Shown piece by piece: positions 128 to 39,114 of a stretch of DNA of 40,646 nt; the first letter of the stretch is position 1, and each line of letters opens with the position of its first letter. The stretch spans positions 1 to 40,646 of IMG/VR virus record IMGVR_UViG_3300042346_000744; one strand, 5' to 3'. Origin of the DNA: a virus. Its lineage: Duplodnaviria > Caudoviricetes. The notes under the pieces are model-generated. The model did no database searches and was not told the origin of the DNA. It was given only the letters and a program-made list of their open reading frames with translations. The position numbers and the translations under genes were made by a program.

Positions 128-314
128 ACCACCACCCCCACCACCACCCCAGTTGGCCAAAGTGCCACAAGCGGCGGCGGTTAGAAATGATGTGGCTGCG
201 CAGAATATTGCGCAAGGTCGCGGCGAAGTGACTAGCACTTTGTTAACTGGTGGCTTAGGAGACCCGATTAAACAAGACAAGCTGGGCCGTAAAACCTTAT
301 TGGGCGGCGTTTAA
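42..314 (+). CDS. Small proline-rich protein preceding the portal gene
   Basis: Poly-Pro tract and C-terminal KTLLG. Its stop overlaps the portal ATG (TAATG). The start may be ATG 51. Confidence 0.7.
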   Translation: MSCMKKYVFGLLPIKLLCGGGSPKAPPPPPPPPPPPQLAKVPQAAAVRNDVAAQNIAQGRGEVTSTLLTGGLGDPIKQDKLGRKTLLGGV

Positions 315-1963
315 TGAGCAATGATCCTATTCAATGCCTGAATAATCGCTTTGAAGCGCTCAAAACTGAGCGGGCGAGCTGGATGGCGCATTGGAAAGAG
401 ATATCACAGTTTTTATTGCCGCGCTCCGGTCGCTTTTTTGAAGAGCAGCGTAATCGAGGCGAAAAACGTCATCAGCAGATTATTGATAATACCGGCACCA
501 AAGCGCTGCGGATTTTATCCGCTGGCTTGATGTCTGGCATGACTAGCCCGTCTAGGCCTTGGTTTCAATTATCCATGATGGATACGGATTTGATGCGGTA
601 TCAACCCGTTAAAATCTGGCTGGATGAATGCACCACGATATTGCAGGGCATTATGTCCCGCAGTAATTTTTATCGGGCTTTGCATAATCTGTATGACGAA
701 CTTGGCGCTTATGGTACTGGCGCGGTGTTTTTAGCCGATGATTTTGAAAACGTGGTGCATTTGCACCCGTTTACAGCCGGTGAGTACATGATTGCCTGTA
801 ATTGGCGTGGTGAAGCCGATACGTTGTATCGGGAGTTTCAAGCGTCGGTTGGCTCGGTGGTTAAAGAATTTGGTTATGACGCTTGTTCCAGCACGACAAA
901 ATCATCGTATGACAGCCGCCACTTAGATCGTTGGGTAGCGATTCGGCACGGCATTGAGCCGCGTACTGATCGTGATTATACCAAGCGTGATGGCATCAAT
1001 ATGCCTTGGCGCTCGGTGTATTGGGAAGTGGGTGAAACGAATCAGGTTTTACGTGAATCAGGGTTTAATCAGTTCCCATGCTTAGCCCCGCGTTGGATGT
1101 TGACCAGTGGCGATATCTACGGCCATTCCCCCGCGATGGATGCTTTGGGCGATGTGAAGCAGCTGCAGGCCGAACAGTTGCGTAAGTCGCAAGCCATCGA
1201 CTTTCAAGCTAATCCCCCGTTGCAAATACCGGCTGCAATGAAAAACCGGGAGATTGATACGCTGCCCGGTGGCCGCAGTTATTACGATCCGATATCAGCA
1301 CCGAACGGCATTAAGACTGCATTTGAAGTGCAGCTGGATCTGCGCAATTTGCTGATGGATATACAGGATGTGCGCGATAGGGTGTACAGCGCATTTTATG
1401 CCGATGTGTTTACGATGATTACCCAGATGGACCGCAAAACCACAGCCACCGAAGTGATGGAACGGCACGAAGAAAAAATGATGATGCTGGGACCAGTGGT
1501 TGAGCGTTTGAATAATGAGTTGCTTGATCCTGCCGTCGAAACCTTGTTTGTTCGCGCATTAAAAGGCGGCTTATTGCCACCACCCCCGCCCGAAATTGAA
1601 GGGCATGATATCAATATCGAATACGTATCGATCTTGGCTCAGGCGCAAAAAATGGCCGGGTTAAATAACGCTGATCGTTATGTGATGAGCATAGGCCAAT
1701 TGGCCACAATGAAACCCGATGTATTGGATCGCTTGGATGCCGATTATTTTGCCGAGATGTACGCGGATAAGTTGGGGACTGATCCTAAGCTAATCGTGCC
1801 AATGGAAAAAGCGGTACTGATCAGACAAGACCGGGCCAAACAAATGCAGGTTGCGCAACAACAAGCGGCATTGCAACAAGGCGCGGATATGCTGGGCAAA
1901 GTCGGCCAGTTATCGACACAACCGGGCACGATGGCCGGTGATGTGATGCAGGCGGCACGATGA
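314..1963 (+). CDS. Portal / head-to-tail connector (T7 gp8-like, BPP-1 type)
   Basis: 549 aa with motifs GMTSPSRPWF, YGHSPAMDALGDVKQLQ and TATEVMERHEEK. Follows terL. Confidence 0.93.
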   Translation: MSNDPIQCLNNRFEALKTERASWMAHWKEISQFLLPRSGRFFEEQRNRGEKRHQQIIDNTGTKALRILSAGLMSGMTSPSRPWFQLSMMDTDLMRYQPVKIWLDECTTILQGIMSRSNFYRALHNLYDELGAYGTGAVFLADDFENVVHLHPFTAGEYMIACNWRGEADTLYREFQASVGSVVKEFGYDACSSTTKSSYDSRHLDRWVAIRHGIEPRTDRDYTKRDGINMPWRSVYWEVGETNQVLRESGFNQFPCLAPRWMLTSGDIYGHSPAMDALGDVKQLQAEQLRKSQAIDFQANPPLQIPAAMKNREIDTLPGGRSYYDPISAPNGIKTAFEVQLDLRNLLMDIQDVRDRVYSAFYADVFTMITQMDRKTTATEVMERHEEKMMMLGPVVERLNNELLDPAVETLFVRALKGGLLPPPPPEIEGHDINIEYVSILAQAQKMAGLNNADRYVMSIGQLATMKPDVLDRLDADYFAEMYADKLGTDPKLIVPMEKAVLIRQDRAKQMQVAQQQAALQQGADMLGKVGQLSTQPGTMAGDVMQAAR

Positions 1964-31829: not shown

Positions 31830-32035
31830 GATTGAGGTTTGTGATGGGGTTTGAAATGACCGTGAACCAGCAGGGCCAGACACGCTGGGAGCACGTAAAC
31901 GGCAAAGCGTTTTTGTATTTAACGCATGGTGAGTTGTGTTTTCATTGTCCTATCTGTCACAATTTAACCGGATTTGACGGTTTGGTTAGGCACTAGCTGT
32001 AACTTAACGCAATGACTAATCTATTGGAGACAAGC

Positions 32036-32242
32036 ATGAATGAGTTGAAAATATTTGATAACCCGAGATCGGGATGCAGAGAATTTATTGTAAATGATGA
32101 ATTGTCGTTTTCGATCGCTAGAGAGTCATTATTAATGCTTAAGCAACACCGATGGGGAATGTATAGCGATGAAACCAGAAGCCAGATCCCGTACAGCCGG
32201 GAACAATATGCTGAGCTTATAAAGGCAAAAATTTTTGGTTGA
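32036..32242 (+). CDS. Hypothetical moron-like gene
   Basis: GGAG RBS before ATG 32036; opposite strand to the cI operon. Confidence 0.5.
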   Translation: MNELKIFDNPRSGCREFIVNDELSFSIARESLLMLKQHRWGMYSDETRSQIPYSREQYAELIKAKIFG

Positions 32243-32265
32243 TAGGGTTGGATCGCATTAATTAA

Positions 32266-32286
32266 GGTACGCGGTGCGTACCCTAC
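32266..32286 (-). repeat. Single GTAG-family REP-like palindrome
   Basis: Minus strand GTAG-GGTACGC-ACC-GCGTACC. Confidence 0.55.
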
Positions 32287-32372
32287 AGGGCTAGGTAAAG
32301 GTGATTTTATGAAGGCGTTTGAATTACATTGGGCGGATAAAGTTGGATTAATGCCTGTTACGATTACAATTG

Positions 32373-32645
32373 CTAGTGAGGGCGTCCAGTATCGTCTGAC
32401 TCCCGAAGTATCTGAACACTGGATAAACCTCCCCACAGGCCAAGCAACATCTGATACATCTTTGCCAATTGTGGTTGTTGACTCTGTTGAAGCGATTCCT
32501 GCTCTTGTTTTAAAAGCGAGAAAAGAACATCTGCTTGCTTTGGGTTGGTCTGGATTATGGTATCGATCACGTTTTTTGAAAATCTTAAAACGAATGTCTC
32601 AAGCTCTTCTTGGGTCAGTAATTGATTTGTTTCATTTGGCGGCAT
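32373..32645 (-). CDS. Hypothetical protein in the cI operon
   Basis: AAGGA RBS 12 nt after the lipoprotein stop. Confidence 0.6.
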   Translation of the reverse strand: MPPNETNQLLTQEELETFVLRFSKNVIDTIIQTNPKQADVLFSLLKQEQESLQQSQQPQLAKMYQMLLGLWGGLSSVQILRESDDTGRPH

Positions 32646-32657
32646 AAAAATTCCTTT

Positions 32658-37290: not shown

Positions 37291-37362
37291 TGCGTAGCAT
37301 CCTCCCCACGCTCCCCTCCTGCGTGAGCGGATGCTACTCGAGCGGTTTTACTGGGCTGTAGA

Positions 37363-37656
37363 CGTCACAGTGTCACAGTAAAAAATAACCGTGACGGATT
37401 AACTGTGACGTCTGCAAGCCTTGCCGCCAAAGGGCTGCAGCGAATCCGTCACAGTGTCACAGTAAAAATTGATTTTTTCCATACGCGCGCGCGTGACGCG
37501 TGTATTTAGGTACGTACTGTTTACGTGTTTTTTTTTAATTGTTTTATGTATTTTTACTGTGACACTGTGACAAGAAGTAATAAAGGTAGATTTATCAAGG
37601 CTTGCAGACGTCACAGTCTTTTTAAAAACTGTGACGTATCTGTGACAAACCGTGAC
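37363..37656. repeat. Iteron-like putative replication origin
   Basis: About 13 GTCAC/GTGAC cores. 22-bp direct repeat (37363-37384, 37447-37468) with an inverted copy at 37551-37571. Perfect 22-bp inverted repeat 37402-37423 / 37596-37617. Central CG run and T-rich tract. Confidence 0.75.
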
Positions 37657-37776
37657 AAGTCATTTAATTTTGAAAGAGGTGTTTATGTTTTGTGCTGAAT
37701 GTAAGTATTTTGTGGGGTATGTAGGAACTGATCGAGGTGATTACGATGCCAAAGATCAATCGGAGGGATAAGCAGC

Positions 37777-38325
37777 ATGCCTAACCCTGAATTGATTTCA
37801 TTACTGACGGCTGGATCTGCGTTGTTTAAAGACGAGATAAGGCATCAGCCGAATAACGGTGTGGTGTTGTCGCGTTGTGAGCTGGCTGGGTATTTATCCG
37901 GCTTGACGCATGGGGCTACGCTGATGGCCTATGCTAAGTGGGGAAACGATGAACAGGCTATGCGGCATCTGATTGCCTGGGTGCGTGTCATAGCGGCAGG
38001 CATGGCCGTTGAGCAGGGCTGGCCGGTTGAGCGGGGTAAGCCTGTGATTTGCAACCTGGCCGCGATTGCGGCTTATGAAGTGGTCATGCCCATGGTGCAT
38101 GATGTTTGTGAGGGGCGTGGTCAGGTTGGGTTTAAAACCTGTAACGGTTGCGGTGGTACCGGCAGGAAAGCGTTATCGAGTCGGCAGGTTCAAGAGGCGG
38201 TTGGGATTGAGCGTAATCTTTGGCGTCGGCAGTGGGAAGGCCGCTATCGGCAGATTGTTAGGGCGGTGGTTGAGTTGGATGCTGAGGTGCAGCGGGGTAA
38301 TGGGGGTTTTAAGGCGGTTGGATAA
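37777..38325 (+). CDS. Late antiterminator Q-like protein
   Basis: HDVCEGRG...CNGCGGTG zinc finger; upstream of a promoter-terminator pair and terS. Confidence 0.72.
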   Translation: MPNPELISLLTAGSALFKDEIRHQPNNGVVLSRCELAGYLSGLTHGATLMAYAKWGNDEQAMRHLIAWVRVIAAGMAVEQGWPVERGKPVICNLAAIAAYEVVMPMVHDVCEGRGQVGFKTCNGCGGTGRKALSSRQVQEAVGIERNLWRRQWEGRYRQIVRAVVELDAEVQRGNGGFKAVG

Positions 38326-38342: not shown

Positions 38343-38415
38343 GTCGTGACGGCGAATACAAATATAAAAACACATTTCTAAGCTGCCTGTGCGGCGGCAA
38401 ATCTGCCGTCACGAC
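38343..38415 (-). ncRNA. Predicted ~73-nt sRNA containing the solitary repeat (Racr-like)
   Basis: 11-bp terminal inverted repeat (38343-38353 / 38405-38415). Extended -10 TGcTATACT at 38430-38422 puts +1 at about 38415. Confidence 0.65.
38375..38402 (-). CRISPR. Solitary type I-F CRISPR repeat (no array, no cas genes)
   Basis: Minus strand ATTTGCCGCCGCACAGGCAGCTTAGAAA versus the canonical I-F repeat GTTCACTGCCGCACAGGCAGCTTAGAAA: 24 of 28 identical, last 21 nt exact. Confidence 0.85.
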
Positions 38416-38462
38416 GTATTGAGTATAGCAAATATTTTATAGGTTATTTATAAAGTCAACAT

Positions 38463-38504: not shown

Positions 38505-38540
38505 AAAAGCCTGCCCGGAAACGGAGCGGGCTTTTTTTTT
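38505..38540 (+). terminator. tR'-like intrinsic terminator
   Basis: GCCTGC-CCG-GAAA-CGG-A-GCGGGC stem with a GNRA loop, followed by T9. Confidence 0.82.
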
Positions 38541-38598: not shown

Positions 38599-39114
38599 AT
38601 GGCCCTTACAGACAAACAGCAATTGTTTGTTGACAATTATTTGACATCTTTAAATGCCACTCAGGCCGCTACTGCTGCGGGTTACAGTGGAAAAACAGCG
38701 AGAACCATCGGCAGCAAGTTGTTAACAAAAGTTGACATTCAGGTTGCTATTTCTGCGGCGATGGCTGAGCGTGGGGACCGGACTAAAATCACTCAAGACC
38801 GGGTTTTAACAGAAGTTGGGCGGATTGCTTTAGTCGATCCTCGGAAAGCGTTTGATAAAAACAACGCATTGTTGCCGGTTAATCAATGGCCTGATGAAAT
38901 TGCCGCCGCTATTTCATCCATCAAGATCAATGAATTGCGTAATTCTGACGGCGATTTGATTGGCGAAACTAAGGAAGTGAAGTTTTGGAGCAAACCTGAC
39001 GCCTTAATGTTGGCCGCGCGTCACTTAGGCATGCTGAATGACAAAGTCACGCTGGATGTGACGGATGAACTGGCCGACAGGCTGGCAAGGGCACGTAACA
39101 GGCTGAATGGATGA
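38599..39114 (+). CDS. terS: Terminase small subunit
   Basis: LTDKQQLFVDNYLTSLNATQAATAAGYSGKTA HTH and ARHLGM motif. Confidence 0.92.
   Translation: MALTDKQQLFVDNYLTSLNATQAATAAGYSGKTARTIGSKLLTKVDIQVAISAAMAERGDRTKITQDRVLTEVGRIALVDPRKAFDKNNALLPVNQWPDEIAAAISSIKINELRNSDGDLIGETKEVKFWSKPDALMLAARHLGMLNDKVTLDVTDELADRLARARNRLNG

Follow-up and report, generated by a model that had tools for sequence, protein, structure and literature searches.

The window analyzed here is the whole 40.6-kb stretch of DNA, a complete-looking temperate phage genome with integrase, repressor, primase-helicase, Q, terminase, portal, and capsid genes; the phage is present in lake metagenomes. Because the best named relatives of its integrase come from Methylomonas sp. 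11b (69%) and Methylobacter (66 and 61%), the host is likely a methanotroph of the Methylococcales. The sole genome match to the Q gene is a 2-kb contig titled Geobacter. The guide described below was found in 0 of 61 genomes from the order of that contig and pmoA was matched nowhere, so these searches have no bearing on the host, as the pmoA controls were also blank. The listed datasets containing the phage include no RNA dataset.

The locus of interest is a slot bordered on the left by a Q-like antiterminator gene (37777..38325, plus strand; PHROG 127, E 2e-6) and on the right by a hairpin and T-run that resembles a terminator of the late promoter (38505..38540, plus strand, recognized by eye, with similar structures in related loci L005 and L085), beyond which lies the terminase small subunit gene, terS (38599..39114, plus strand; PHROG 51, E 2e-36). 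The element described here lies within this slot, encoded on the minus strand, in the interval separating the end of Q from the late promoter region. The content of the slot is variable, as 0 of the 14 related loci scanned have a repeat there (one loose chance match lies elsewhere in L268), and in L005, L085, and L086 small genes take the place of the repeat element. In L005 (3642-4078) and L085 (2607-3046), the slot after Q contains a small unknown gene and a ribbon-helix-helix-like gene with their own promoter, a layout that we take to resemble that of acr-aca pairs; the ribbon-helix-helix-like gene of L085 matches NCBIfam NF041551 at an E value of 4e-5, which is below the cut-off. The slot of L086 holds a 147-aa unknown gene, and the slot genes of all three loci are candidates for anti-defence proteins. 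When 13-16 small proteins of the phage were compared with Pfam and NCBIfam, none matched an Acr family, nor did the four compared with the PDB.

Two other regions of the window were recorded. After the primase-helicase gene, positions 37360-37660 contain 13 GTCAC-type boxes in direct and inverted orientation, including a 22-bp inverted repeat, and this cluster is likely the replication origin. At 31993-32650, small unknown genes (76 and 112 aa) lie on the strand opposite the early left operon; they have no family matches and are possible accessory genes.

A solitary type I-F repeat is bracketed by an 11-bp clamp

A preliminary description of this DNA had placed a 13-nt leader, a 28-nt repeat, and a further 32 nt on the minus strand at 38415-38343, and this arrangement was confirmed, with the last 11 nt exactly complementary to the first 11. 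The predicted +1 at 38415 follows an extended -10 promoter element that was identified by eye (38422..38430, minus strand). The box is identical in L001, though the bases between it and +1 differ. A promoter consensus scan did not list this by-eye box, which has a poor -35, and listed instead a site 9 nt upstream. In the order of transcription, and all on the minus strand, the element comprises the 5' arm of the 11-bp clamp (38405..38415; pair probability 0.96-1.0), a 2-nt linker (38403..38404), a solitary type I-F repeat (38375..38402) with its stem-loop at 38397-38383, an AT-rich, clamp-free guide of 21 nt (38354..38374), and the 3' arm of the clamp (38343..38353; spacer positions 22-32). 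By analogy with the solitary repeats described in the accessible text of PMC10651486, Cas6f is predicted to cut between 38383 and 38382, leaving the last 8 nt of the repeat (38382-38375) as the handle.

A 21-nt repeat-core pattern matched the window once and 0 of 100 shuffled sequences, and the phage genome contains no second repeat. The 73-mer folds at -31.3 kcal/mol (z -4.9), a value equaled by 0 of 200 shuffles. Among 4000 random sites, 7 had an 11-bp complement across a 28-nt gap. Genome-wide, inverted repeats of this kind are no rarity (8 seen versus ~1.2 per simulated genome), and the significance of the clamp therefore lies solely in its position around the repeat.

Two features had been overlooked in the preliminary description. 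First, the second pair of the repeat stem is a C·A mismatch, which was found in 1 of 346 array repeats; the C6-G20 base pair is present. Because arrays of Methylococcales use both U-A and C-G forms of this pair, the stem in the phage is a hybrid between them, and the mismatch may weaken Cas6f binding. Second, no intrinsic terminator was found 3' of the clamp, so the 3' end of the RNA is not defined by one. Rfam gave no match at gathering scores. A 79-codon antisense frame starting at 38412 was rejected as a gene, as it shadows Q and its start codon is absent in the diverged homologue described below.

A two-piece RNA with a short working spacer is predicted

A single cut at the stem's base would yield a 33-nt 5' piece (clamp arm, 2 nt, 5 nt, and hairpin) and a 40-nt 3' piece (handle, 21 nt, and clamp arm), which are predicted to remain paired in a two-strand fold of -32.5 kcal/mol. 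The two-piece, circularly permuted topology of the preliminary description is supported by covariation of the clamp at conserved spacing in the diverged homologue. Its proposal that pairing returns the Cas6f hairpin to the 3' end of a 32-nt pseudo-spacer was not supported. The strands of the clamp are antiparallel, and the hairpin leaves it beside guide position 21/22 and not at position 32; the continuous path is 21 + 2 nt, which fits four Cas7f and not six. Because its arms are antiparallel, the clamp would be a side branch, and the working spacer would be 21-23 nt rather than 32. The free guide, 21 nt (23 with the linker), is within the short-spacer range of 17-21 nt typical of Cracrs. According to the accessible text of PMC7296934, spacer length is related to Cas7f number as L = 6N-4, and truncated I-F1 Cascades bind DNA without triggering Cas2/3. 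A working spacer of 21-23 nt would then accommodate about four Cas7f. We found no report in which a Cascade with a side helix had been tested.

Folds of the growing transcript gave a stem pair probability of ≤0.02 at lengths of 33-62 nt, 0.09 at 68 nt, and 0.67-0.69 at the full 73 nt; before that, the 5' side of the repeat is predicted to be taken up by pairing with the leader. A folding lock, by which the repeat stem forms only after the clamp closes, is thus predicted for the protein-free RNA.

The clamp covaries in a diverged homologue

In a close relative of the phage, represented by two IMG/VR contigs and one lake contig, there are 0 changes in the 73 nt of the element versus 22 in the other ~330 aligned bases, and changes flank the element at both edges, 38342 and 38418 (chance 0.0008-0.006). 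These two contigs were the only ones to carry the element in scans of IMG/VR, the first broad scan having covered 56 of 64 parts. Cultured phages gave no homologue, the repeat query returning only a partial, handle-free repeat in Pectobacterium phage ZF40. In that phage (1500-1520 of L276), an I-F stem-loop without a normal handle lies just before gp28 and downstream of gp31-gp29. A further supposed copy of the element, in L280, was rejected as a chance match in AT-rich coding DNA.

One diverged homologue, hereafter homologue C, was found on a 151-nt lake contig (X5 record 27, depth 2) through its likeness to the loop, handle, and guide only, with 4 unplaced differences in 38 nt. Its clamp was read by eye from the two loose ends of the contig, which were assigned by their lengths. 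So read, homologue C has a 10-bp clamp at distances exactly as in the phage, the linker included in the overall spacing, and 10 of 10 outer pairs are kept. Two of these carry compensatory double changes (pair 5, U-A to A-U; pair 7, A-U to C-G), pair 2 has gone from U-A to a U-G wobble, and the innermost 11th pair is lost. In simulations, all ten pairs survived five random substitutions in 0.24% of trials. In the repeat itself, the second stem pair, which is C·A in the phage, is paired in homologue C, which has a wobble elsewhere. From these comparisons of sequence, the clamp looks selected. Conservation of the 32-nt distance and covariation in the clamp, proposed as a check in the preliminary description, are thus both seen in the one diverged homologue found.

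A similar design occurs in an unrelated provirus (G062; 245-385 of L113, minus strand), where a perfect solitary I-F repeat lies inside a 14-17-bp helix of different sequence, with an additional outer helix, 20-23 free bases, and a fold z of about -6, upstream of a small acidic gene. The first helix of L113 ends at 37 nt, so a distance of 32 nt, which is kept in homologue C, is not general. The nuclease gene of L113 is closest to those of Burkholderia phages, and its guide had no target in the loci tried. Overall, solitary repeats with a clamp are rare: clamps at p ≤ 0.01 were found around 3 of 70 solitary repeats, two of these being the element itself, versus 6 of 335 array repeats; the 70 solitary matches include many from a set of 57 loci that are chance matches in coding sequence. 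Two other loci were rejected as the same design: L105, which looked clamped but whose leader falls inside the promoter and whose fold lacks significance (z -0.9), and L091, which is strongly folded and leaves only about 12 free bases. L091 (G064; 262-380, plus strand) is a solitary I-F repeat in an RNA of several helices (z -6.1) that includes a GNRA-type hairpin, and the downstream segment of L190 opens with the same 8 bases as that of L091.

The guide is common to a mini-array in lake metagenomes

By analysis of lake-metagenome runs, we identified contigs that are not from the phage and that match the repeat and the first 20 bases of the guide in 4 of 4 runs from 4 studies. In these contigs (X2-3, X3-10, X4-19, and X5-26), the alignment stops where the clamp begins. 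One contig family has 4 differences in 40 nt and another 6 in 41, and a match that continues into the guide is expected by chance at 4e-7 to 1e-5 per repeat. In X3 record 10, the spacer is 25 nt long and leads to a second, worn repeat, so that the locus reads as a two-repeat mini-array; its first repeat is atypical and lies behind an AT-rich -10-like box. The mini-array was seen with 30 nt on each side, and its host origin and its place in a cas locus are putative. In X2 and X4, the loose-end consensus "before 38355" combines two contigs (agreement 0.67); it was excluded. An ordinary spacer acquired from the phage was rejected as the source of the match, because the shared sequence begins directly in register with the handle and is preceded in the phage by AA, not CC.

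Type I-F regulatory mini-arrays repress the cas8f promoter, according to the accessible text of PMC10120712, and X3 record 10 has their anatomy. A guide that mimics the spacer of a host CreR/CreA is expected to match at least 9 PAM-proximal bases; here 20 bases align, with ≤4 differences over 40 nt including the repeat, their positions being unplaced. As far as the accessible text of 10.1101/2024.10.29.618823 describes, host CreR/CreA guides are 23-27 nt, and viral I-F Cracrs, whose guides are 17-21 nt, assemble with four Csy3 and act as repressors of creT or cas promoters. By comparison, the 25-nt array guide and the 21-nt phage guide fit this size pair of host regulator and viral mimic. An unannotated antisense regulatory mini-array with a 19-nt spacer was observed between cas3f and csy1 on a plasmid of Methylobacter sp. 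YRD-M1 (7170-7330 of L277). Its seed has an 11-nt match next to a CC PAM within the promoter region of csy1, and its guide differs from that of the phage; going by this example, the likely host group possesses regulatory mini-arrays.

Because the repeat and first 20 guide bases are common to a different lake-metagenome locus, the guide is probably not blind. Of the two functions offered in the preliminary description, the loading of a full, blind Cascade has the lower likelihood. Repression of a cas-type promoter gains independent support from the shared guide and from published systems (PMC10120712 and 10.1101/2024.10.29.618823, as far as their accessible text goes), but no target promoter was found: a CC-PAM target of the guide was absent from the phage, 306 loci, and four plasmid I-F loci. 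The earlier statement that the phage holds no convincing self-target stands. The guide is also absent from two supplement files of PMC10120712, which apparently do not include its large tables.

Discussion

Based on the above comparisons, we propose that the predicted 73-nt RNA is a circularly permuted Cracr, which carries a copy of a host regulatory guide, forms a short, non-cutting Cascade, and represses a host cas or CreT-toxin promoter. We assign this reading a probability of roughly one-half (0.52). Transcription would start at 38415, and the leader would mask the repeat stem during synthesis, until closure of the clamp allows the stem to form. After one Cas6f cut, Cas6f would be retained on the 33-nt 5' piece, as its known behavior suggests. 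Cas5f/Cas8f and about four Cas7f would then find an 8-nt handle and 21 free bases on the 40-nt 3' piece, and the clamp, as a side helix, would return the Cas6f hairpin to cap the filament in place of the missing second repeat. If it behaves as published Cracrs do, the short complex would sit on a promoter site with a CC PAM without cutting by Cas2/3, and it would also consume Cas proteins.

In this analysis, the element is closest to a Cracr in its predicted action and to a Racr in its appearance. It resembles CracrIF1 and CracrIF2, as presented in the accessible text of 10.1101/2024.10.29.618823, in that its guide of about 21 nt is common to a longer (about 25 nt) regulatory-type mini-array and in having its own predicted promoter in an accessory slot. 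It is encoded on a mobile element outside a CRISPR-Cas locus, on a phage between Q and terS, with one repeat. Unlike a Cracr, it has a clamp instead of a second repeat-like hairpin downstream of the guide, so it is a Cracr variant and not a plain member. The same source compares type I-F Cracrs through the repeat-like sequences flanking the spacer, and its single-repeat Cracr is of type V-A, with a terminator; in the phage element, one repeat and a clamp would supply both the handle and the Cas6f hairpin. No acrIF24-like neighbor was seen beside the element. Host type I-F1 CreR/CreA mini-arrays and their phage copies, as described in the accessible text of PMC10120712, likewise have a short guide and an atypical first repeat, an anatomy also found in the shared lake locus, but those mini-arrays have two repeats and the phage element has no second one. 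With RacrIF1-3 (PMC10651486, accessible text), the element shares a single intergenic I-F repeat and a predicted promoter (by eye here) in a temperate phage. RacrIF1 acts through 70-76-nt upstream products that are coated with Cas7f without Cas5f/Cas8f; in the phage element, provided that the +1 is predicted correctly, 13 nt lie upstream, 11 of them paired, and the handle piece would stay attached. That RacrIF1 inhibits through the product upstream of the cut and not through the handle piece (PMC10651486, accessible text) is a point against the reading we prefer. The sequence of the element is absent from the nine supplement files of that paper.

The strongest competing explanation, which we nevertheless consider unlikely, is a Cracr whose clamp merely defines and protects the ends of the RNA, so that the handle-plus-guide piece joins Cas5f/Cas8f/Cas7f and the Cas6f tether is irrelevant. 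With no intrinsic terminator, a terminal helix would be needed as a barrier; in the accessible text of 10.1101/2024.10.29.618823, CracrIE1 is matured with only four 3' repeat bases, and, from that of PMC7296934, DNA binding by a 5' subcomplex that lacks Cas6f is possible in principle. A plain 3' hairpin, however, would shield the end without any leader, and homologue C keeps the exact spacing of clamp, repeat, and guide, with a similar one in L113. The predicted folding lock also suits tethering better.

Somewhat less probable again is a Racr-type decoy, in which a blind complex soaks up Cas6f and other subunits and the shared guide is a mere relic of descent from a host mini-array. Racr activity is proven for solitary I-F repeats that follow a promoter, and even non-targeting crRNAs titrate Cascade (both PMC10651486, accessible text); the blank target search in the phage, 306 loci, and plasmid I-F loci agrees with such a role. 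Against a decoy, the guide is still alignable in homologue C and the mini-array while the flanks and clamp diverge, and the mostly paired 13 nt upstream of the repeat cannot form a long Cas7f filament like that of RacrIF1. Moreover, because spacer-mutated Cracrs raised cas transcription (10.1101/2024.10.29.618823, accessible text), a decoy with no target would be counterproductive in a host with CreR/CreA.

It is improbable that the inverted repeat acts as DNA (two inverted origin-like boxes or insertion ends) or that the transcript acts as antisense RNA to Q, with the CRISPR likeness a leftover. In favor of this reading, both arms hold a heptamer 13 of whose 22 genome copies cluster in the putative origin (37363-37657), and the transcript runs toward the 3' end of Q without a terminator. 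Against it, homologue C alters the heptamer yet keeps the pairing, including a G-U pair that suits RNA, and related phages carry unrelated cargo in the slot.

For the circularly permuted Cracr that we favor, a broader proposal is more tentative and stands a little below even odds: that phages have more than once evolved a permuted guide, built from one repeat, a short stolen guide, a terminal clamp that would rejoin the Cas6f hairpin after cleavage, and a folding lock that would permit cleavage only once the clamp is closed, with a complete four-Cas7f Cascade on a two-piece RNA silencing the host CRISPR or its toxin. Circularly permuted tRNA genes and two-piece tmRNA also have ends joined by pairing and one internal cut that gives a two-piece working RNA; they are unrelated RNAs, and the analogy is one of design only. 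Phage guide mimics, the Cracrs, are a known class, and we did not find the one-repeat, clamped, circularly permuted form in print. Searches of the literature, subscription papers aside, for permuted, split, or two-piece crRNA with Cas6 yielded nothing relevant among the results listed. The main text of the Cracr preprint (10.1101/2024.10.29.618823) does not contain "permut", and its supplementary tables could list this or a similar element.

If this reading is right, an RNA in two pieces can support assembly of a class 1 CRISPR complex, a side helix at the PAM-distal end is tolerated, and a single repeat suffices for a capped guide. The design would also offer a compact, recombination-proof guide scaffold with a helix free for attachments, and it would be a first hint of a CRISPR-silencing RNA in phages of lake methanotrophs. 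Because Cracr searches rely on two repeats or similarity to CreR, and a lone repeat is classed as a decoy, guides with a clamp may have been put in the wrong category; a simple rule now allows screening for them. Among other viral loci, two-repeat mini-arrays with short spacers, which are Cracr candidates, were observed in L288, L290, L297, L299, L300, L303, L305, and others. In viral loci with at most two handles, 17 of 38 spacers are 8-25 nt long.
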